DNA from: Anaerolineae bacterium
Lineage (GTDB): Bacteria > Chloroflexota > Anaerolineae > SpSt-600
Length of the DNA stretch: 64,000 nucleotides
NCBI GenBank assembly: GCA_025062375.1
Contig: JANXAG010000003.1
Span: forward strand, 35,613 to 99,612
Reading direction: 5' to 3'
The notes under the pieces were generated by a model. That model saw nothing but the letters and a program-made list of their open reading frames with translations. It had not been told where the DNA came from and made no database searches. Shown piece after piece: positions 1,692 to 44,565 of this stretch. The position numbers and the translations under genes were made by a program. Position 1 is the stretch's first letter. Each line of letters starts with the position of its first letter.

Positions 1692-2718
1692 GCTGAGCTT
1701 AAGGAAGCGGCGATGGCTCTCCTTGGCTGTCGCCGCTTTCTTCCTAATAATCGTCGGGTTGCTGGCTACAACCTGGGGTGCTGCTGGCATCCCCGTCTCG
1801 GCGGTGGTGAGAATACTGATGGGCGCCAGTGTGGAGCCAGCGACCTGGGAGACCATAATATTTCAAATTCGCATTCCCCGGATCGTGCTTGGGGGGATTG
1901 TGGGAATGACTCTGGCCATAGCCGGAGCTGTCTACCAGGCTATTTTCCGCAATCCCCTGGCTGACCCTTACCTCCTCGGGGTTTCTTCAGGGGCATCCTT
2001 TGGGGCAGCGGTGGCCATTTATTTTGTCTGGCGTTTCTCCTGGGGAGGATTGAATGCCGTATCCATAGCGGCCTTCGGGGGAGCTTTGCTGGCCACCGCC
2101 ACCATCTATTCATTAGCCAGAGTGGGAGGCAAGGCCCCTGTAACAACCCTTATCCTGGCAGGTGTGGCTATAGGAGCTCTGCTCTCATCAGCCACTACCT
2201 TCCTCATGTTTACTACTCGCGAGGCCTTCCACACCATTAACCTTTTAGGCTGGCTGATGGGAAGCCTGGCTCTGGCTGACTGGACCCGGGTTAAAACCGC
2301 AGCCACCTATATAGCTATAGCCTTAAGCGTCATCGCCTATTATTCTTACACCCTGAATGTCCTCCAACTGGATGAAGACCAGGCCATGGCTTTAGGGGTG
2401 GAAGTGGAAAGGGTCAAGTTTATCATTATAGCTGCCGCTTCCCTGGCCACAGCTGCTGCCGTCTCCGTTAGCGGGGTTATCGGCTTCCTTGGGATAATAA
2501 TCCCTCACACGGTGAGAATTCTGTGGGGTTCCGATTACCGCTTTCTTTTACCCATGAGCGGAATTTTGGGAGGCCTTTGCCTCATCTTGGCTGATGGTTT
2601 TATCCGTCTGCTCTTTGCCCCCAGAGAACTGCCCATTGGAGTGGTGACAGCTTTCTTAGGAGCTCCTTTTTTCATTTATCTATTGCGCCGCTATAAGAAG
2701 GAGGTTTTTCCATTTTAA
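1678..2718 (+). CDS. btuC: FecCD/BtuC-family ABC transporter permease
   Basis: 346 aa, about 9 TM helices, typical FecCD motifs (GLLATTWGAAG, ..LLGVSSGASFGAA..). Overlaps the upstream gene by 14 nt. Confidence 0.85.
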   Translation: MLSVRLSLRKRRWLSLAVAAFFLIIVGLLATTWGAAGIPVSAVVRILMGASVEPATWETIIFQIRIPRIVLGGIVGMTLAIAGAVYQAIFRNPLADPYLLGVSSGASFGAAVAIYFVWRFSWGGLNAVSIAAFGGALLATATIYSLARVGGKAPVTTLILAGVAIGALLSSATTFLMFTTREAFHTINLLGWLMGSLALADWTRVKTAATYIAIALSVIAYYSYTLNVLQLDEDQAMALGVEVERVKFIIIAAASLATAAAVSVSGVIGFLGIIIPHTVRILWGSDYRFLLPMSGILGGLCLILADGFIRLLFAPRELPIGVVTAFLGAPFFIYLLRRYKKEVFPF

Positions 2719-2730
2719 GGGAGGGAGGAC

Positions 2731-3516
2731 ATGTTACCGCTGGTGGTCAGAGGAGTTCATTTCAGTTACGATGGTAGACCGGTGCTCAGAGGGGTTAGCT
2801 TAAGCGTTGCTGGAGGAGAGGTGGTAAGCCTCATAGGCCCTAACGGGGCTGGAAAATCCACCCTGATCAAGCTCATAGCTGGCATTCTGTCACCACAAAA
2901 GGGGGAGATTGAGGTTCTGGGTTGTCCCCTGCGAAGGTGGAAAAGAAAGAGCCTCGCCCGAGTAATAGCCCTTGTCCCCCAGGGAGCTTACATACCGCCT
3001 ACTTTTTCCGTTTGGGAAAGCATCTATCTGGGCCGAACGCCTTACCTTAATTTCCCGGGAATCGCCAGAGACAGGGATATTAAAGCCATTGAGAGAGCCA
3101 TGCGCTGGGTAAAAGTAGAGCATTTGAAGGACAACCTAGTGGGGGAACTGTCGGGTGGGGAACGCCAGAGGGTGATATTAGCCAGGGCGCTGGCGCAGGA
3201 ACCGAAGATCCTGCTTCTCGATGAACCAACAGCTCATCTGGATATACACCATCAGGTATCAATCCTAAAGTTTATCCGAAAACTTGCCCGTGAAGAGGGC
3301 CTGGCGGTTTTAGCCGTGCTTCATGACCTCAACCTGGCCTCTTCTTTTTCCGATAGAATTGTCCTTATGGCGGGGGGAGAAGTTCTGGCCCAGGGGGCTC
3401 CGGAGGAAGTTATAAAGTGGGAGAGGCTCCGAGAAGTTTACGGCACTGGCATTATAGTGATGCCAAGGCCCGATGATTCCCGCCGCCCTGCAGTGCTCCC
3501 GGAATTTTCCCTTTAA
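2731..3516 (+). CDS. btuD: ABC transporter ATP-binding protein (BtuD/FecE family)
   Basis: Walker A GPNGAGKST, signature LSGGERQRV, Walker B LLLDEP. Confidence 0.9.
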   Translation: MLPLVVRGVHFSYDGRPVLRGVSLSVAGGEVVSLIGPNGAGKSTLIKLIAGILSPQKGEIEVLGCPLRRWKRKSLARVIALVPQGAYIPPTFSVWESIYLGRTPYLNFPGIARDRDIKAIERAMRWVKVEHLKDNLVGELSGGERQRVILARALAQEPKILLLDEPTAHLDIHHQVSILKFIRKLAREEGLAVLAVLHDLNLASSFSDRIVLMAGGEVLAQGAPEEVIKWERLREVYGTGIIVMPRPDDSRRPAVLPEFSL

Positions 3517-3542
3517 TGGCTGACCTTCTTCTGGCTAAAACA

Positions 3543-3574
3543 AAAAGCCGGGGGTCTTCCTGTCCCCCGGTTTT
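3543..3574. terminator. bidirectional intrinsic terminator between convergent btuD and nuoN
   Basis: aaaaaGCCGGGGG-tcttcctgt-CCCCCGG-tttt. A-run and T-run flank the hairpin, so it can terminate on both strands. Confidence 0.6.
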
Positions 3575-5045
3575 AGAAAAGGGCAGAGCCCAGGATATGA
3601 ACGGCTTCGGTTCCTACGGAGATGAAGGGGTGTGGGTAAAGGCCTATGATGAAAACCATTACCAGGCTTACCACCACAGCCCATCTGAGGGAACTGCTCA
3701 CCGAAATTGGACTTTCGTCCCCGGGCCTGAAGAACATTTGCTTGACCACATTTAGATAATAGAAAGCTGAAATCACGCTGTTTATTATCCCCACAAGAGC
3801 CAGGATGTAAAACTGCATCTGAATAGCAGCACCAAAGACGAAAAACTTCCCCACGAACCCTCCGGTCCCCGGTATGCCGATGAGAGATAGCAGAAAGATG
3901 ATCATGGCGCCTGCCAGAAGAGGGTCGCGCTTTATAAGGCCGGCATAATCGGCGATGCGGTTGGAACCAATAGCTCTTTCCACCGCTATCACTACGGCGA
4001 AAGCACCGAGGTTAGTGAAAAGATAGGCCATGAGGTAAATGAGCACCCCGTTCAGCCCGGTGAAATTGCTGGCCACTCCGCTCACCATGCATACGATACC
4101 CATGAGGATGTAGCCGGCGTGAGCGATGCTGGAATAAGCCATCATTCTCTTTATGTTTTCCTGACGAAGGGCTATCAGGTTCCCCAGGGTCATGGTCACC
4201 ATAGAAATTCCCGCCAGGAGGGCAGTCCAATCCGGCTGGAAATCGGCGAGGGCGGTGATGAAAACCCTCATGAGCACTGCCAGGCCAGCAGCCTTGGGCC
4301 CCACCGAAAGGAAAGCTGTCACTGGAGTGGGGGCTCCCTCGTATGTGTCAGGGGACCACTGATGGAATGGGACGAGGGCGATTTTGAAGCCAAATCCTGC
4401 CAGAAGAAGGATCATGGCGGGAAAGGCCAGCCATCCTCCTACCTCGCTTTTCTTTAAGGCCGGCCCTATTTCAGTCAGATACAGCGTTCCCGTGACCCCG
4501 TAGAGAAGCGACATGCCGTAAAGCATCAGAGCCGAGGCTGTAATTCCGTAGAGGAAGTACTTTATAGCCGCTTCGCTGGACTTGCCTTCCTCCCGCAGGT
4601 ACCCCACCAGGATATAGGAGGTGAGGCTGAGGAACTCAAAGGCCAGGTAAAGCATGAGCAGGTTTACGGAGCCTACCACCAGCAATATGGCCAAAGTTAC
4701 CAGGAGAAAGAAGGCGTAGAATTCTCCCCGGTAAGGGGTGTGGCCCTCCAGATAGCGGTAAGAAGAAAGGAGGACAAGCCCCGTGCCTACCAGAACAAGC
4801 CCTTTGAAGAAGAGAGCAAACCTGTCGGAAGCCAGCATACCAAATAGAGGGGAGGCGGAAACTTTCCCGAAAAGGAGGAGCAAGAGGAAGGAAAGAGCTG
4901 TGAAAGCCACAGCCAGGCTCAAAATTACCGCTTCTTTCCTTTCTTCTGCCCTTCTCCAGGCCATATCCAGGGCCAGAAGGGTCAGCCCTCCCAGGAAAAG
5001 GGCCAATTCCGGAGCAAAGGCTGAAAGAATGTCCATGACGCTCAA
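3573..5045 (-). CDS. nuoN: NADH-quinone oxidoreductase subunit N
   Basis: 490 aa polytopic antiporter-like subunit at the 3' end of the nuo operon. Confidence 0.85.
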   Translation of the reverse strand: MSVMDILSAFAPELALFLGGLTLLALDMAWRRAEERKEAVILSLAVAFTALSFLLLLLFGKVSASPLFGMLASDRFALFFKGLVLVGTGLVLLSSYRYLEGHTPYRGEFYAFFLLVTLAILLVVGSVNLLMLYLAFEFLSLTSYILVGYLREEGKSSEAAIKYFLYGITASALMLYGMSLLYGVTGTLYLTEIGPALKKSEVGGWLAFPAMILLLAGFGFKIALVPFHQWSPDTYEGAPTPVTAFLSVGPKAAGLAVLMRVFITALADFQPDWTALLAGISMVTMTLGNLIALRQENIKRMMAYSSIAHAGYILMGIVCMVSGVASNFTGLNGVLIYLMAYLFTNLGAFAVVIAVERAIGSNRIADYAGLIKRDPLLAGAMIIFLLSLIGIPGTGGFVGKFFVFGAAIQMQFYILALVGIINSVISAFYYLNVVKQMFFRPGDESPISVSSSLRWAVVVSLVMVFIIGLYPHPFISVGTEAVHILGSALF

Positions 5046-38464: not shown

Positions 38465-38503
38465 GGTACCCCCTTATATCTGAGTCCTGAATTTGCGGTA
38501 AAA

Positions 38504-39088
38504 CTAAGGCCTTATGCGACGCAACAGGCTTTCAAGTCTAGTGGTATCTTTGTAAAGTAACCTGGTAAGCTCGCGGCCCACATCTACCAGAAAATAACGC
38601 CCCTCTTTACCAAGAGAGCCCGCCATCCGCCTTATGCCTACCGCTATCAAGTCATCGGCAGGGATGCCCGGGTTGCTGAGGATGGTACGGAGAAAATCCA
38701 AACCCGAGAGGGCAAACTCCCTAACTTCTTCATCGGAACAGCTTTCTACCACGCTGAAAGGCATCGGGGGCTGAGGCGGCATCTCTTGACGGATAAAACC
38801 ATAGCGCTTATATCCCACCACTACTACTGAAATTTCCACAGGAAGCAGCCTGTTTTCTATATGGTCCCTTATGTACTCCTCCGGCAGATTTTGCGCTGTA
38901 ATAAGCTGTCGCACGGACGAATCGCTCTGGATAGACACATTGTAAATAAAGCCGTAAACGATGCTACCATCCTGGGTGAGGACTTTGACGAAATCGCCGA
39001 AGGAAGGAATATCGTGAAGGAGAGTGCGACAGCCGGCAGTAAACTGGGTTGTATTGGCGTGGATTACTCTCCCTATCTCCTGCCCCAT
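38504..39088 (-). CDS. hypothetical 194-aa protein; its N-terminus resembles a HerA-type HAS-barrel and it has no ATPase domain
   Basis: IGRVIHANTTQFTAG....FGDFVKV..DGSIVYGFIYNV follows the HAS-barrel pattern. No Walker A or Walker B motif. Its start is 2 nt from the stop of the upstream NurA-like ORF. Confidence 0.4.
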   Translation of the reverse strand: MGQEIGRVIHANTTQFTAGCRTLLHDIPSFGDFVKVLTQDGSIVYGFIYNVSIQSDSSVRQLITAQNLPEEYIRDHIENRLLPVEISVVVVGYKRYGFIRQEMPPQPPMPFSVVESCSDEEVREFALSGLDFLRTILSNPGIPADDLIAVGIRRMAGSLGKEGRYFLVDVGRELTRLLYKDTTRLESLLRRIRP

Positions 39089-39089
39089 T

Positions 39090-40220
39090 TTACATTAACC
39101 TCTTCCACCTTTCCTTTGGAGAAAGCTGTGGGATTAGACCTTTCCGCATCATGGCGCGTTCTATCATCTCCTCAAGACTTTTCCTTTCCTGAGCCTTTAT
39201 CACAGCTAATTCATGAGCCCTTTCGAGAACATAAGGATACCCCCCAGTGTTTTCGCTCTGTTTCAGGATCGCTCCCTGGATAAAGGCCACAAGCTCTCTA
39301 TCTCTGGCTATCCATTCAGGCACTTCAACCCTGGCAATTTCTCCCTCAACGTTGAGGTAAAAGAAGAAAACGCGATTCTCTCCGTAGTAATCGTTCAGGA
39401 CTGATGGGCTTTCAAAGAGGGCAGAACGCCACCCTTTCGGCAGGAAGGAAAAGAGAGTGGCGTCGGTTAAGCGACCCCAAGGGCGCCGGAGAGTAGGTTG
39501 CTTTAAAGTTTCCTCTCCAAAATGCATCAGCCTTAAAAGGTCCACCACTTCGCAATAACGAGGACGACTTATGAACCCGGCCAGGAGAGCCCCGGCATTG
39601 CGGATTTTATCCATCTCTTCCGTGTAAGCCCTGATTTTATCCTGATGCAGGTTCTTTTCTTCCTCTAAAATCCAGAGGAGCAGTGTCCCATCAATCAGGG
39701 CCAGAATTGGTGTCTCTTCCCGCCTGGCTTTCTCCACCACTTCCTTTACCCTTTCAGAAATTTCCTTCAGCTCCGCCAGCCCCCTTCTGACATCTAGAAG
39801 GCTACCCTGCACCAGGCGGTTGCCTTCGTAAAGGTCTTCGTCTCTATAAAAAAGGAAAGGCATGCTTCTGGGGATAGGGGTTTCACCGCTGCTCTCTCTG
39901 AGAACAATGCTCCCTATGTTTATGAGATAGTAAAGAGCAATGCCGTGACGGTCAGGCTGAACCTGAGAGCCATCGGCAGCAATGGCGAAGAAAGAAGAGG
40001 GTACAGGCTTGGGAGGCTCCTGAAGATCTATGGGTTCATTGGATGGAACTGCAGCTCCTAACTCTTTGGCTTTAGTCCTGAATTCAAAAGCTGAAATGGA
40101 ATAACGTTTAAGAAGCTCCCGGGCTCTATCGGCCACCCTCTGGTAGCGAGCCCTTTCTGCAGTCAATTCCTCGGCCATTTTTTCCACTTGAGGAATCAAG
40201 TGAGGTAGATAAAGACTCAC
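39090..40220 (-). CDS. NurA-like nuclease domain protein (GTG start with a GGAGGT RBS)
   Basis: FFAIAADGSQ and ILALIDGTLLLW D-G-S/T motifs in an RNase-H-like context typical of NurA. The ORF track extends to 40292, but a strong RBS plus a GTG at 40220 fits better and leaves room for the divergent promoters. Confidence 0.45.
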   Translation of the reverse strand: MSLYLPHLIPQVEKMAEELTAERARYQRVADRARELLKRYSISAFEFRTKAKELGAAVPSNEPIDLQEPPKPVPSSFFAIAADGSQVQPDRHGIALYYLINIGSIVLRESSGETPIPRSMPFLFYRDEDLYEGNRLVQGSLLDVRRGLAELKEISERVKEVVEKARREETPILALIDGTLLLWILEEEKNLHQDKIRAYTEEMDKIRNAGALLAGFISRPRYCEVVDLLRLMHFGEETLKQPTLRRPWGRLTDATLFSFLPKGWRSALFESPSVLNDYYGENRVFFFYLNVEGEIARVEVPEWIARDRELVAFIQGAILKQSENTGGYPYVLERAHELAVIKAQERKSLEEMIERAMMRKGLIPQLSPKERWKRLM

Positions 40221-40298
40221 TTCCGACCTCCAATTAATTTTAGCACAAAAACGCCAATATGGGAAAAAGGAGCCTGGTGAAGTCAAGCTCACCTAAGT

Positions 40299-40359: not shown

Positions 40360-41826
40360 TTGCGAGAGCGAAACCTTCTAATCCTTCTTGGGATAATTCT
40401 TCTGGTTGCCTTTTGCCTGTGGATTGACCTACCCCAAACAGAAGCTCTTAGCCTTCAATTAGGGCCTCTTAAAATTTACCGGGAGATAAAGTTTCGTCTT
40501 GGCCTCGATTTGAGAGGAGGCCTTCAGGTAGTTCTGGAAGCTGATCCTCCACCGGGTGAGAAGGTTACCCCCGAAAGTATGGAGGCGGTTCGTAATATAA
40601 TCCAGAACCGAGTTGACGGCATGGGTGTAGTGGAAGCTGTAGTCCAGCGCCAGGGAGAAAACCGCATCCTTGTGGAACTCCCTGGCCTTGTAAACCCTGA
40701 TGAGGCTATTGCCACTTTAAAGGCTACAGGGCGATTGGAGTTTGTGGAGGCGGGACTGACCCCATTGCCTGAAGGCCTGAAAATCTTGACAACCTATGAA
40801 GTTCCCCTAGAGCCCTCACCAACCGAAACCATTACCCCCACCCCGGGAGCTGCTCCTACCCCCACGCCTACAATTACTCCTACCGTAACTCTAACCCCCA
40901 CCACCGAAATTACCCCCACCCCGCAGGTTTACAGGACCATAATGACCGGTAAACACCTTAAGTCGGCAAGGGTTGGGAGTGATGAATTCGGCAGGCCGGA
41001 AATAGACTTTGAACTCACCCGCGAAGGGGCCGAAATTTTCGCCAAATACACAACGGAGCACCAGGGGGAGTTCCTGGCTATCGTAATGGATGGAATTGTC
41101 ATCTCATGTCCCCAGATAAAAGAACCGATAACTGATGGGATGGGGAGGATAACCAGTGAAAAAGGTTTTACTCTGGAGGAGGCAAGGCGTCTGGCCATTA
41201 TCCTCCAGTACGGTGCTCTCCCTGTTCCCCTTAAAGTTATACAGACCAGAATTATAGGCCCAACTTTAGGGCAGGATTCAATCCAGAAAAGCATAAGGGC
41301 GGGTATAATAGGGGTAATAGTGGTCTTGACCTTTATGCTCACATATTACCGGCTCCCAGGCTTCCTAGCCGACCTCGCTCTTATCTCTTATGGTCTCATA
41401 AACCTTGCCATATATAAGTTTGGAATTCCTGGCTTATTCCCCGGGGTTACCCTGAGCTTACCAGGTATAACGGGCTTTCTCCTTTCCACAGGAATGGCCG
41501 TTGACGCTAACATCCTGATCTTTGAGAGAATGAAAGAAGAACTGCGTCAAGGTAGGCCACTGTCGGCAGCTATTGAGGCTGGCTTCAACCGGGCCTGGAC
41601 TTCTATCAGGGATGCTAACCTTTCAACGCTTCTTACCTGCATAGTCCTTTACTGGTTTGGTTCTAATTTCGGGGCGAGTATGGTGAAAGGGTTCGCCGTT
41701 ACCCTTTTCATAGGGGTTTGCGTAAGCATGTTCACCGCGGTCACCATGACCCGAACTCTTGTAACTTTCGTCTTCGACCTGAGCGGACGGTTCTTAGAGA
41801 AGAGACGGTGGCTTCTGGGAGTTTAA
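40360..41826 (+). CDS. secD: protein translocase subunit SecD
   Basis: 488 aa with a periplasmic domain carrying a Pro/Thr linker, and C-terminal 6-TM RND-like motifs. Confidence 0.9.
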   Translation: MRERNLLILLGIILLVAFCLWIDLPQTEALSLQLGPLKIYREIKFRLGLDLRGGLQVVLEADPPPGEKVTPESMEAVRNIIQNRVDGMGVVEAVVQRQGENRILVELPGLVNPDEAIATLKATGRLEFVEAGLTPLPEGLKILTTYEVPLEPSPTETITPTPGAAPTPTPTITPTVTLTPTTEITPTPQVYRTIMTGKHLKSARVGSDEFGRPEIDFELTREGAEIFAKYTTEHQGEFLAIVMDGIVISCPQIKEPITDGMGRITSEKGFTLEEARRLAIILQYGALPVPLKVIQTRIIGPTLGQDSIQKSIRAGIIGVIVVLTFMLTYYRLPGFLADLALISYGLINLAIYKFGIPGLFPGVTLSLPGITGFLLSTGMAVDANILIFERMKEELRQGRPLSAAIEAGFNRAWTSIRDANLSTLLTCIVLYWFGSNFGASMVKGFAVTLFIGVCVSMFTAVTMTRTLVTFVFDLSGRFLEKRRWLLGV

Positions 41827-41842
41827 AGGGGAAGGAGGCAAA

Positions 41843-42775
41843 ATGTATAACATCATTGAGAAAAGGTACTGGTTCTTCGGCCTTTCTTTGCTCATAATAA
41901 TTCCAGGCTTGATAGCTATGGCCATTTCTCTGGCACGATTTGGAGCCCCCTGGAAGCTTTCCATTGATTTCACCGGTGGAACCTTAATGGAACTGCGCTT
42001 CGAACAGAAAGTTTCCCCCGAAAGGATTTACACAATTTTCACCAATTTAGGCTACGGGGACACCACAGTCCAGACCACAGCCGACGAGAAAACCGCCCTT
42101 ATAAAATGCAAAACCTTAGACGAAGAAGCTAAGGTTAAGGTTCAAGAAGAACTGAGGAAAGAGTTTGGCCCCTTTGAGGAACTGCGCTATGAATCCATAG
42201 GGCCCGCTGTCGGAAGGGAAGTGACGAGGGCAGCCACCCTGGCGGTGATCGCGGCTTCCTTCATAATCCTGAGTTTCATTGTATTTGCCTTTCGGAAAGT
42301 CCCCAACGCCCTACGCTATGGAGTCTGTGCTATAATCGCCATGGTTCACGACGTCCTTGTAGCCACGGGCCTCTTCTCCATAGCCGGCCTGCTAATAGGG
42401 TGGGAAGTGGATGCCCTCTTCATAACTGCTCTCTTAACGGTGATAGGCTTTTCAGTGCAGGATACTATTGTTGTTTTTGACCGGATAAGAGAAAATACTC
42501 CCAAGCGCCGGGGCGAACCTTTTGAGGTCATAGTCACCCGGAGCCTTCTGGAGACCTTCCATCGTTCTCTGGTCACTCAGCTAAACGCCATATTTGTCCT
42601 TTCGGCAATTCTTCTTTTCGGAGGTGCTACCATAAAGCAATTTGTGACCGTCCTCCTGGTAGGGCTTATGAGTGGAACCTACTCCTCAATCTTTAACGCA
42701 GTCCCCCTTCTGGTGGTGTGGGAGAACAGAGAAATCCAAAAATTTATAGCCAGAGTCTTTGCTCGGAGTTCTTAA
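41843..42775 (+). CDS. secF: protein translocase subunit SecF
   Basis: 310 aa, SecF topology and motifs. Confidence 0.9.
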   Translation: MYNIIEKRYWFFGLSLLIIIPGLIAMAISLARFGAPWKLSIDFTGGTLMELRFEQKVSPERIYTIFTNLGYGDTTVQTTADEKTALIKCKTLDEEAKVKVQEELRKEFGPFEELRYESIGPAVGREVTRAATLAVIAASFIILSFIVFAFRKVPNALRYGVCAIIAMVHDVLVATGLFSIAGLLIGWEVDALFITALLTVIGFSVQDTIVVFDRIRENTPKRRGEPFEVIVTRSLLETFHRSLVTQLNAIFVLSAILLFGGATIKQFVTVLLVGLMSGTYSSIFNAVPLLVVWENREIQKFIARVFARSS

Positions 42776-44565
42776 TGAAAAGGGCCAGCTTTCTGGCGCC
42801 CCTGGCCTTAGGAATCGGAGGGCTTTGTCTTTACCTCCGCACAATGGCCCCTTCGGTTTCAACGATTTTTGACGATAGTCTGGAGTTCCAGGTCGTTTGC
42901 CCAACACTGCGCATAGCTCATCCGCCCGGATACCCCCTTTACACCCTTTTAGGCTGGCTATTTTCTCACCCTCCCGGAGTAGATCCTGCCTGGGGGGTAA
43001 ATCTGCTTTCGGCAGTAGCAGGAGCCGCAACCCTCGTAGCCCTCTACTTTCTCGCCCAACTGTTCTCACCAGAAGCTGCCTTCATTGCTCCTCTTTATCT
43101 TGCCCTCTCGCCTATTTTCTGGTCACAAGCGACCGTAGCTGAAGTTTATGCCCTTCATGCTCTAATCGTAGCCTCGGCCCTTACCTTTATTTTCAAAGCC
43201 ATAGAAAACAAAAAATTCTTGCCCTGGGCAGCTCTTATGGTGGGCCTTGGTCTCGCCCATCATAGAACTTCCATCTTTTTGCTCTTGCCTCTTGCGTTGG
43301 TCTTCTTCAGGGACAAAACGCAAAATAAAAATAAAATTTTAGCCCTTTTTGCCCTTATTCTGCCACTGGCTTTTTATTTTTATCTACCCTTAAGGGGGAT
43401 GAAAGTCACCTCCCTTGACGGAACATACACCAACACCTTTGAGGGCTTCCTTCGCTGGGTTACGGCTTCAGACTACGGAGTTTTCTTCAAAGAGAGCCCT
43501 CTGGCACGCCCGACTCCTCTGAGCTGGCATTTGAAACTGTGGCTCTCTCAGTTCGGACCCATTGGAATTGTTTTAGGGCTTATAGGCCTGAGCCGGTTGA
43601 GGTCATATAAAGCAATTTTGTGGTGGTTAACCTTCATGCCTTTCACCCTCTTTGCTTTCATATACCGTGTCCCCGACCCCGAGGTGTTTTTCATACCGTC
43701 GTTTCTCCTTTTTTCATTAGCTATAAGTGAAGGGGTGAGCTTGATTTTGAGCCTGAGGCGCTTGCTTCTGAGGTGGGCTCTGCTGGTTATGGCGTTGCTT
43801 CAGCCTCTTTTTATTGGAGTAAAAAATTTCCACAAACTGGATCGCAGCCAAAATGTTGAAGTTTACGCTCTTGGGGCATCTATGATTTCATCCGCAGCAG
43901 GGAACTCACCGGTAGTAATTGGACTTCTTGGGGAAAGGACTCTCATGAGCTACTTTCAAGATCTATATGGCCTCAATCCTGATGCCACTCTGATTGCCGC
44001 CGACCGCGAAGAGGAAAGGCTAAAAGCTGTAGAAAAGGCTCTGGCTGAAGGTCGCGCGGTATATCTTACCCGGCCCTTGCCTGGCCTTCCGAATCATTTC
44101 AGGCTCTGGGCTCAGGGCAATTTAATCCGGGTTTGGGATTCTTCCCCCCCCGAGGTTGTTCCTAAAAAAGTGGTGGGAGCTGAAATAGCAGAAGGACTTA
44201 AGCTTGAGGGTTATGAGCTTTTAATTCTTCCGGGACCACCCAGGCGCTGGCCTGTACCTCCCGTACCTCTTCAAATCAGGGTTAACCTTTACTGGAGAAC
44301 TTTAAAACCCTTCAACGAAGAGCTCAAAATATCGGTGCGCTTCTACAATGCCGAAGGCGAAATGCTTATCCAGAGTGACAAAATTCCGGTGCACTTTGCT
44401 TATCCCATTACGAAGTGGAAACCGGGGGAATTAATTTTGGATTCTTACGATTTTCTATTAAAAGCCACCAAAGGCCCTCCGGTGAAGCTGGTGATAATAG
44501 CTTATGAACCATCCTCTTTGGCTGAGAAAGGGCGAATAGAACTTGCAGTAGATAAACACCCATAA
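42775..44565 (+). CDS. polytopic membrane glycosyltransferase, DUF2723/GT39-like paralog
   Basis: Start overlaps the secF stop (TAATG). More than 10 TM helices, then a soluble C-terminal domain (..VRFYNAEGEMLIQSD..PGE..LDSYDF..). Confidence 0.6.
   Translation: MKRASFLAPLALGIGGLCLYLRTMAPSVSTIFDDSLEFQVVCPTLRIAHPPGYPLYTLLGWLFSHPPGVDPAWGVNLLSAVAGAATLVALYFLAQLFSPEAAFIAPLYLALSPIFWSQATVAEVYALHALIVASALTFIFKAIENKKFLPWAALMVGLGLAHHRTSIFLLLPLALVFFRDKTQNKNKILALFALILPLAFYFYLPLRGMKVTSLDGTYTNTFEGFLRWVTASDYGVFFKESPLARPTPLSWHLKLWLSQFGPIGIVLGLIGLSRLRSYKAILWWLTFMPFTLFAFIYRVPDPEVFFIPSFLLFSLAISEGVSLILSLRRLLLRWALLVMALLQPLFIGVKNFHKLDRSQNVEVYALGASMISSAAGNSPVVIGLLGERTLMSYFQDLYGLNPDATLIAADREEERLKAVEKALAEGRAVYLTRPLPGLPNHFRLWAQGNLIRVWDSSPPEVVPKKVVGAEIAEGLKLEGYELLILPGPPRRWPVPPVPLQIRVNLYWRTLKPFNEELKISVRFYNAEGEMLIQSDKIPVHFAYPITKWKPGELILDSYDFLLKATKGPPVKLVIIAYEPSSLAEKGRIELAVDKHP

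Follow-up and report, generated by a model that had tools for sequence, protein, structure and literature searches.

HerA and NurA constitute the model helicase-nuclease of DNA-end resection in archaea and in some bacteria. A NurA dimer sits on a HerA hexamer, against the face that the HAS-barrels form, a layout that also underlies the solved defence complexes Sir2-HerA, DUF4297-HerA and TdpAB. The ring of HerA HAS-barrels docks the NurA dimer, and in Sulfolobus deleting the HAS-barrel abolishes the complex (PMC3326311); in Deinococcus, an acidic HAS patch of HerA binds a basic face of NurA (PMC9960219). The nuclease activity of NurA depends on HerA in the characterised systems (PMC3326311). 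Among these, the complexes of S. solfataricus, T. kodakarensis and D. radiodurans are encoded together with Mre11-Rad50. In the present study we analyzed 64,000 nucleotides from an Anaerolineae bacterium (contig JANXAG010000003.1, positions 35,613 to 99,612; the whole stretch is called 'the window' below), which carry a nurA gene followed by a gene for a 194-residue protein that we call X. The NurA-HerA end-resection machine itself is known; what appears to be new is X, an additional, widespread and uncharacterised component. We consider it rather probable that nurA and X both belong to the NurA-HerA(-Mre11-Rad50) machinery with which bacteria resect double-strand-break ends, X as an accessory gene not described before.

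The first of the two products, from an open reading frame (ORF) of 400 codons, is a bona fide NurA nuclease of RNase-H fold in which the predicted catalytic aspartates are intact. It matches the Pfam NurA family (PF09376) over profile positions 4-254 of 254 (E=6.4e-24; score 85.3 bits, curated threshold 21). An AlphaFold2 (AF2) model built from 51 homologues reached a predicted local distance difference test score (pLDDT) of 93.4; its fold is RNase-H-like, and the solved NurA structures are closest to it, followed by PIWI, EndoV and RNase H. A sequence search of the PDB with NurA gave nothing useful. An earlier reading of the window made from the sequence alone (the sequence-only reading) had called this protein NurA-like and pointed to two DG(S/T) motifs, and both statements hold: the motifs are D83-G-S and D177-G-T (numbered on a 376-residue protein), they place their aspartates at the ends of beta1 and beta4 of the modelled RNase-H core, and both aspartates are invariant across the 51 homologues. 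D83 and D177 appear to fit D58 and D133 of Sulfolobus NurA, whose catalytic acidic triad is D58, E116 and D133 (PMC3326311). Three further invariant acidic residues, E132, D143 and E150, are candidates, on conservation only, for the catalytic glutamate.

The longest nurA ORF spans 39090-40292 and begins at a GTG at 40292. An identical GenBank protein from an Anaerolineae metagenome-assembled genome (MAG), P0011, and all relatives have about 376-390 residues and align from residue 25 only. This makes the GTG located 24 codons inside the ORF, at 40220, the most likely start, and 40221-40292 would be an over-extension. A promoter-like -35/-10 site falls within this apparent 5' extension.

Protein X scores below the threshold of the Pfam HAS-barrel family (PF09378; E=0.021, 15.3 bits, cut-off 25.2). 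The same profile matches 28 of 60 diverse X-family members at E<=0.1, the best of them at 2.7e-9, and gives 27.1 and 20.9 bits for the relatives P0211 and P0244. No match to X was found in NCBIfam or PADLOC, and the PDB searched with the X family profile gave nothing useful. The AF2 model of X (pLDDT 84.6) consists of a barrel and a confident helical bundle (Table 1). HerA chains came out on top in two fold searches; Foldseek listed no other chains in its top 50, and the alignments covered 127-145 columns, more than a bare barrel would fill. In structural terms the N-terminal barrel of X is, according to the model, a HerA HAS-barrel that can be superposed on the N-terminal domain of HerA, as the sequence-only reading had proposed. 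The net charge of the barrel is negative in 91% of family members.

Several features set X apart from the HAS-barrel of HerA. The barrel contains an insertion at about residues 54-80, helical and poorly modelled yet highly conserved, with the motif D56-x-x-V-R-Q. At residues 103-108 an LPPQPP loop is conserved as well. The bundle that follows the barrel has five predicted helices, from H119-127 to H182-192, and a conserved motif, GRELxxLL...D..RLE.ILRR, with D181, R184, L185 and L189 among the conserved residues; it had no sequence match in Pfam or the PDB.

The family is large. A word-indexed search with X returned ten relatives, and an exhaustive profile search returned 811 clusters at 50% identity (E<=1e-3), or 485 at E<=1e-10, practically all of 190-210 residues. 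Because the clusters number 811, the X family, as judged from these sequences, is far beyond a chance occurrence. Its members are currently annotated 'hypothetical protein', and a description of an X-type subunit was found neither in Pfam, NCBIfam or PADLOC nor in the searchable literature (subscription journals lay outside its scope), in line with the earlier suggestion that the pair is not described in this form.

Because it lacks the ATPase domain that defines HerA, X does not count as a HerA; it stands alone as a protein whose barrel is of the HerA HAS type. X has no Pfam match to DUF87 (PF01935), and a Walker A motif is present neither in X of the window nor in any of 70 X-family members, as against 30 of 31 neighbouring HerAs; the earlier statement that an ATPase domain is missing was correct. 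Where HerA has a RecA-like domain, X has its private C-terminal bundle, and at the sequence level the relation of X to the barrels of neighbouring HerAs is barely detectable: when the X family was compared profile to profile with 20 of them, only 30 columns within the barrel core matched (hhalign, E=0.036). Given this value, and since those HerAs keep a HAS-barrel of their own, we rejected the idea that X is a fragment, a recent truncation or a split of the adjacent HerA. The sequence-only reading had reasoned that a HerA lying directly beside X in related genomes would indicate fragmentation; such HerAs do exist (see below), but X is a separate, extra gene that has no C-terminal extension in any of 70 loci. 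In some GC-rich loci X lies within stop-to-stop ORFs of 400-688 residues; these proved to be upstream, out-of-frame artefacts that overlap nurA and add nothing at the C-terminus.

To place the pair in its genomic context, relatives were collected by NurA alignment using one genome per species; 262 genomes matched and 80 loci were retrieved, all from Chloroflexota (Anaerolineae, Thermoflexales, Ardenticatenales, Caldilineae and one Ktedonobacter MAG). In 60 (85%) of the 71 species-level loci whose sequence extends 700 nt or more past nurA, X follows immediately and on the same strand. The median distance from nurA stop to X start is 1 nt (59 loci); the two codons overlap in 28 of these 59 loci and lie at most 30 nt apart in 45. 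Judging from this gene order, nurA and X form a conserved, translationally coupled pair in most of the Chloroflexota genomes sampled, which answers positively the call in the sequence-only reading for a check of neighbourhood conservation. In the window, X starts 1 nt past the nurA stop (TAA-A-ATG), and not 2 nt as had been given, and a purine-rich Shine-Dalgarno-like stretch, GGAAAGGTGGAAGAGG, lies ahead of X within the 3' end of nurA; since this stretch is inside nurA and the stop and start are 1 nt apart, translational coupling is likely here as well. Pairs of nurA and X also occur in MAGs labelled as other phyla. In one of these, a hot-spring MAG labelled Deltaproteobacteria, a 773-kb contig (L088) carries the pair by itself; its two genes overlap by 4 nt, as they do in L094 (contig FWPU01000119).

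Clustering of the flanking ORFs revealed a family of about 570 residues downstream of X in 31 loci. These proteins are full-length HerAs, with a DUF87 match (Pfam, 4e-30), a HAS-barrel of their own and a Walker A motif. The reference set is the 49 loci that contain X and have 2.5 kb or more of sequence downstream; 63% of them (31) have HerA downstream of X, and in 15 loci HerA starts no more than 150 nt after X. HerA-bearing loci without X were not encountered. A Mre11-like phosphoesterase gene follows herA in many loci and lies upstream of nurA in another group. The order NurA-X-HerA-Mre11-Rad50 is complete in L094, with overlapping gene boundaries, and in a MAG labelled Clostridia (L090, where the last gene is Rad50/SbcC), and L095 has NurA-X-HerA. 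From gene order, nurA-X-herA-mre11-rad50 is the ancestral or most complete context, and HerA in this context keeps its own HAS-barrel. Compared with the described HerA-NurA complexes, the window NurA belongs to the same family and fold, its relatives carry nurA, herA, mre11 and rad50 in one co-oriented cluster, and the HerA of these clusters likewise combines a HAS-barrel with a DUF87 ATPase. The difference is the extra X of 190-210 residues, placed between nurA and herA and coupled to nurA.

The window differs from these clusters in that nurA-X is unlinked from herA, mre11 and rad50; the canonical co-located, co-oriented nurA-herA-mre11-rad50 cluster is not present in its 64 kb. A second genome shows what such an arrangement can mean. 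In GCA_041300525.1, the nurA-X pair, near 4.557 Mb on a scaffold of 5.2 Mb, is unlinked from herA, and the same scaffold encodes a 564-residue DUF87 protein at 3,271,397-3,273,091, about 1.28 Mb away; this protein was found with the HerA of the nearest HerA-linked relative (L042), to which it is 85% identical. An unlinked pair does not imply absence of HerA, because this genome encodes both, and by analogy the HerA motor of the window genome is most likely encoded elsewhere in that genome. The sequence-only reading had described the pair as a NurA/HerA system 'minus the motor'; the HerA genes of the relatives and of GCA_041300525.1 do not support this as a general description.

That reading had also suggested a defence module. 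With no match for NurA or X in the PADLOC-DB v2 defence models at E<=1, no relatives of the pair found on viral contigs, and relatives linked to Mre11/Rad50, gene content and context indicate that nurA-X is an end-resection system of the NurA-HerA type and not a defence system. Among the closest known systems is TdpAB (8wet), made of a HerA-like TdpA and a NurA-like TdpB. In Sir2-HerA (Nezha) and DUF4297-HerA, the HAS-barrel of HerA docks the effector, and X matches these HerA chains structurally; nurA-X differs from both: it lacks a Sir2 or DUF4297 effector, X is without an ATPase, and the surroundings are not those of a defence island.

If X is an accessory subunit of this machinery, its mode of action can be outlined. 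X probably binds NurA through its HerA-like acidic barrel, since HerA itself contacts the NurA dimer with its HAS-barrel. X would then be a stoichiometric adaptor or regulator at the NurA-HerA interface, which might either bridge the two partners and position NurA on the HerA ring, or occupy the HerA-docking face of NurA until HerA engages. The contacts specific to X could come from its conserved helical bundle, from the LPPQPP loop and from the insertion at residues 54-80. In the lineage of the window, nurA-X would have been split from herA by operon erosion. A mirror-tree comparison over the 28 loci with all three genes gave correlations of 0.89 for NurA and X, 0.86 for X and HerA, and 0.80 for NurA and HerA; the partial correlations were 0.66 for NurA-X, 0.53 for X-HerA and 0.15 for NurA-HerA given X. 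This is weakly compatible with X touching both NurA and HerA.

A number of observations weigh against an accessory role for X. The window contains no HerA, Mre11 or Rad50 (31 HerA and 27 Mre11-like proteins gave 0 tblastn matches in its 64 kb), and the closest relatives (L006-L013, with 73-79% NurA identity) have none of the three within 6 kb. The 11 exceptions to the pairing form a Thermoflexales-like subclade whose nurA has neither X nor HerA within 6 kb; because nurA stands alone there, X is not obligatory beside every NurA of the clade. The mirror-tree and charge arguments are both confounded by shared phylogeny. The sole apparent NurA-X fusion, P0211, was rejected as a 'Rosetta stone', since it resembles, and probably is, a frameshift artefact: its similarity to NurA ends after GYPVALAEA and is followed by an arginine/glycine-rich linker that looks out of frame. 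Finally, the well-studied Deinococcus and archaeal systems are two-protein complexes with no X.

The best placed of the alternatives, to which we give a modest chance, is that X is a decoy or inhibitor, a mimic of the HAS-barrel that competes with HerA for its face on NurA and keeps resection off until damage occurs. X resembles specifically the NurA-binding N-terminal region of HerA, and the HerA of the same operons has its own HAS-barrel, which makes X redundant as a docking domain; moreover, when the operon breaks up, X stays with NurA and not with HerA. Strict co-orientation, the overlap of stop and start codons and the position between nurA and herA are, however, more typical of stoichiometric subunits.

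A more speculative proposal, somewhat less probable than the decoy, treats X as a stand-alone 'HerA collar', that is, an ATP-free ring of HAS-barrels that would clamp DNA onto the NurA dimer. Such a ring would provide a HerA-independent mode of NurA action wherever nurA-X is unlinked or HerA has been lost and, in the presence of HerA, would stack between NurA and the HerA hexamer. If this were true, bacterial resection would involve a three-layer machine, as opposed to the two-protein paradigm of archaea and Deinococcus.

It is unlikely, though only a little more so, that nurA-X works in this lineage as an autonomous, motor-less module, in which a passive ring or clamp of X HAS-barrels loads or activates NurA, possibly for defence or specialised repair. 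The empty surroundings in the window and in L006-L011 and L013 (no HerA, Mre11 or Rad50, within 6 kb in the latter) speak in its favor, as does the persistence of a tight nurA-X pair in many lineages where it is unlinked from herA (L001, L088 and L014-L018), from which it follows that selection acts on the pair itself. The one genome with an unlinked pair that could be checked nevertheless encodes HerA elsewhere; HerA comes directly after X in 31 of the 49 loci that are informative, and it does so in further lineages; the neighbouring genes have housekeeping roles, and neither PADLOC matches nor copies on viral contigs were found; and NurA requires HerA for activity in the characterised systems (PMC3326311). 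For this lineage the autonomous module is less likely than the accessory-subunit reading. Lastly, we regard it as very doubtful that X is a DNA-binding small-beta-barrel factor acting beside NurA-HerA as an end recogniser or recruiter, its HerA likeness reflecting shared barrel ancestry only, given that HerA chains lead both fold searches over more columns than a bare barrel offers and that a net acidic barrel is unfavourable for DNA binding.

The gap between X and herA is variable in content. Toxin-antitoxin modules of the MNT/HepT or MNT-HEPN type (nucleotidyltransferase plus HEPN RNase) occupy this position in no fewer than 10 of the 31 loci with a linked herA (L020:7781-8651, L026, L030, L034-L038, L045 and L053), sometimes as fused two-domain genes; in L002 (4062-5143) an MNT/HEPN-type module lies upstream of nurA. 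A gene of the PD-(D/E)XK superfamily is present between X and herA in L061 (7822-8265; PDDEXK_3, E=5e-41), and a pentapeptide-repeat protein is encoded directly after X and before a distant herA in L075 (7806-10929) and L083 (7891-8469), and in L075 a sensor histidine kinase gene (PAS/GAF) comes next. Proteins of the pentapeptide-repeat type often mimic DNA. We rejected the gap genes (MNT/HEPN, PD-(D/E)XK, pentapeptide-repeat and sensor kinase) as a further conserved repair subunit; the gap looks like either an insertion hot spot or a site of functional association inside a DNA-repair operon.

Other variations concern the outer neighbors of the pair. In a distant Anaerolineales/Caldilineae group (L065-L083), the Mre11-like metallophosphoesterase gene lies directly upstream of nurA, sometimes as two tandem copies (for example L065:4603-5994 and 2362-3678; L072:812-2077 and 3014-4399), a gene order that differs from nurA-X-herA-mre11. 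An unannotated gene of 269 codons upstream of a relocated HerA gene (L086) was discarded as a candidate: it encodes a hydrophobic membrane protein and, among the retrieved loci, matches only L086 and the near-identical L087. L001 and L002, with 85% identity between their NurA proteins, share a conserved, unannotated 86-residue gene and a sortase gene after X on the opposite strand (L001:7931-9153; L002:8045-9324). Loci of Thermoflexales-like type in which nurA has no X or herA within 6 kb are L004, L012, L019, L021, L024, L025, L027-L029, L039, L043 and L062; in L004, genes for DUF2344 and an RNA 3'-phosphate cyclase (RtcA) lie downstream of nurA.

In the window, both ORFs were confirmed as adjacent and on the minus strand, and their features are collected in Table 1.

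Table 1. Coordinates of the nurA-X features in the window
Feature	Coordinates	Strand	Description
nurA	39090..40220	minus	376 aa; GTG start at 40220 favoured by homologues
Gene X	38504..39088	minus	194 aa; HerA-N-terminal-like, without ATPase domain; uncharacterised family
X residues 1-116	38741..39088	minus	Predicted HAS-type beta-barrel (AF2 model, Pfam, alignments)
X residues 119-192	38513..38734	minus	Predicted C-terminal helical bundle (AF2 pLDDT >90 here)
nurA-X junction	39086..39112	minus	TAA, 1 nt, ATG; read directly from the sequence
Promoter-like site	40237..40265	minus	TTCCCA-17-TAAAAT with extended TG; consensus scan

The promoter-like site is upstream of the favoured nurA start, in a region shared divergently with secD; such sites are no commoner here than in shuffled controls, which makes this one weak evidence. 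The genes secD and secF are divergent from nurA and upstream of it (40360-42775), and 39 nt downstream of X a penicillin amidase gene follows in the same orientation, with genes for a LarA-like protein and a 2Fe-2S subunit further downstream. These flanking genes are housekeeping genes, as the sequence-only reading had noted. The 39 nt between the X stop and the amidase start (38465-38503) contain no terminator-like hairpin and offer the amidase gene a good Shine-Dalgarno sequence (AAGGGGG), and nurA, X and the amidase gene may be co-transcribed. The pair secD/secF also adjoins nurA-X-herA in the unrelated contig of L095 (12210-14535), convergent and downstream there; this adjacency in both places is probably a coincidence. 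A 615-residue TMEM260-like/PMT_2 glycosyltransferase ORF at 42718-44565, read from its first GTG, shares 58 nt with the end of secF, and its true start is probably further downstream.

What emerges is a widespread gene, with about 800 clusters at 50% identity, that combines a HerA-like docking barrel with a novel helical bundle and has no motor. Its place between nurA and herA, and the fact that it is kept with nurA when the operon breaks up, suggest that many bacterial systems contain a third, unstudied subunit, which may bridge or gate the contact between nuclease and motor. Describing X would also improve the annotation of a family of 'hypothetical' proteins.

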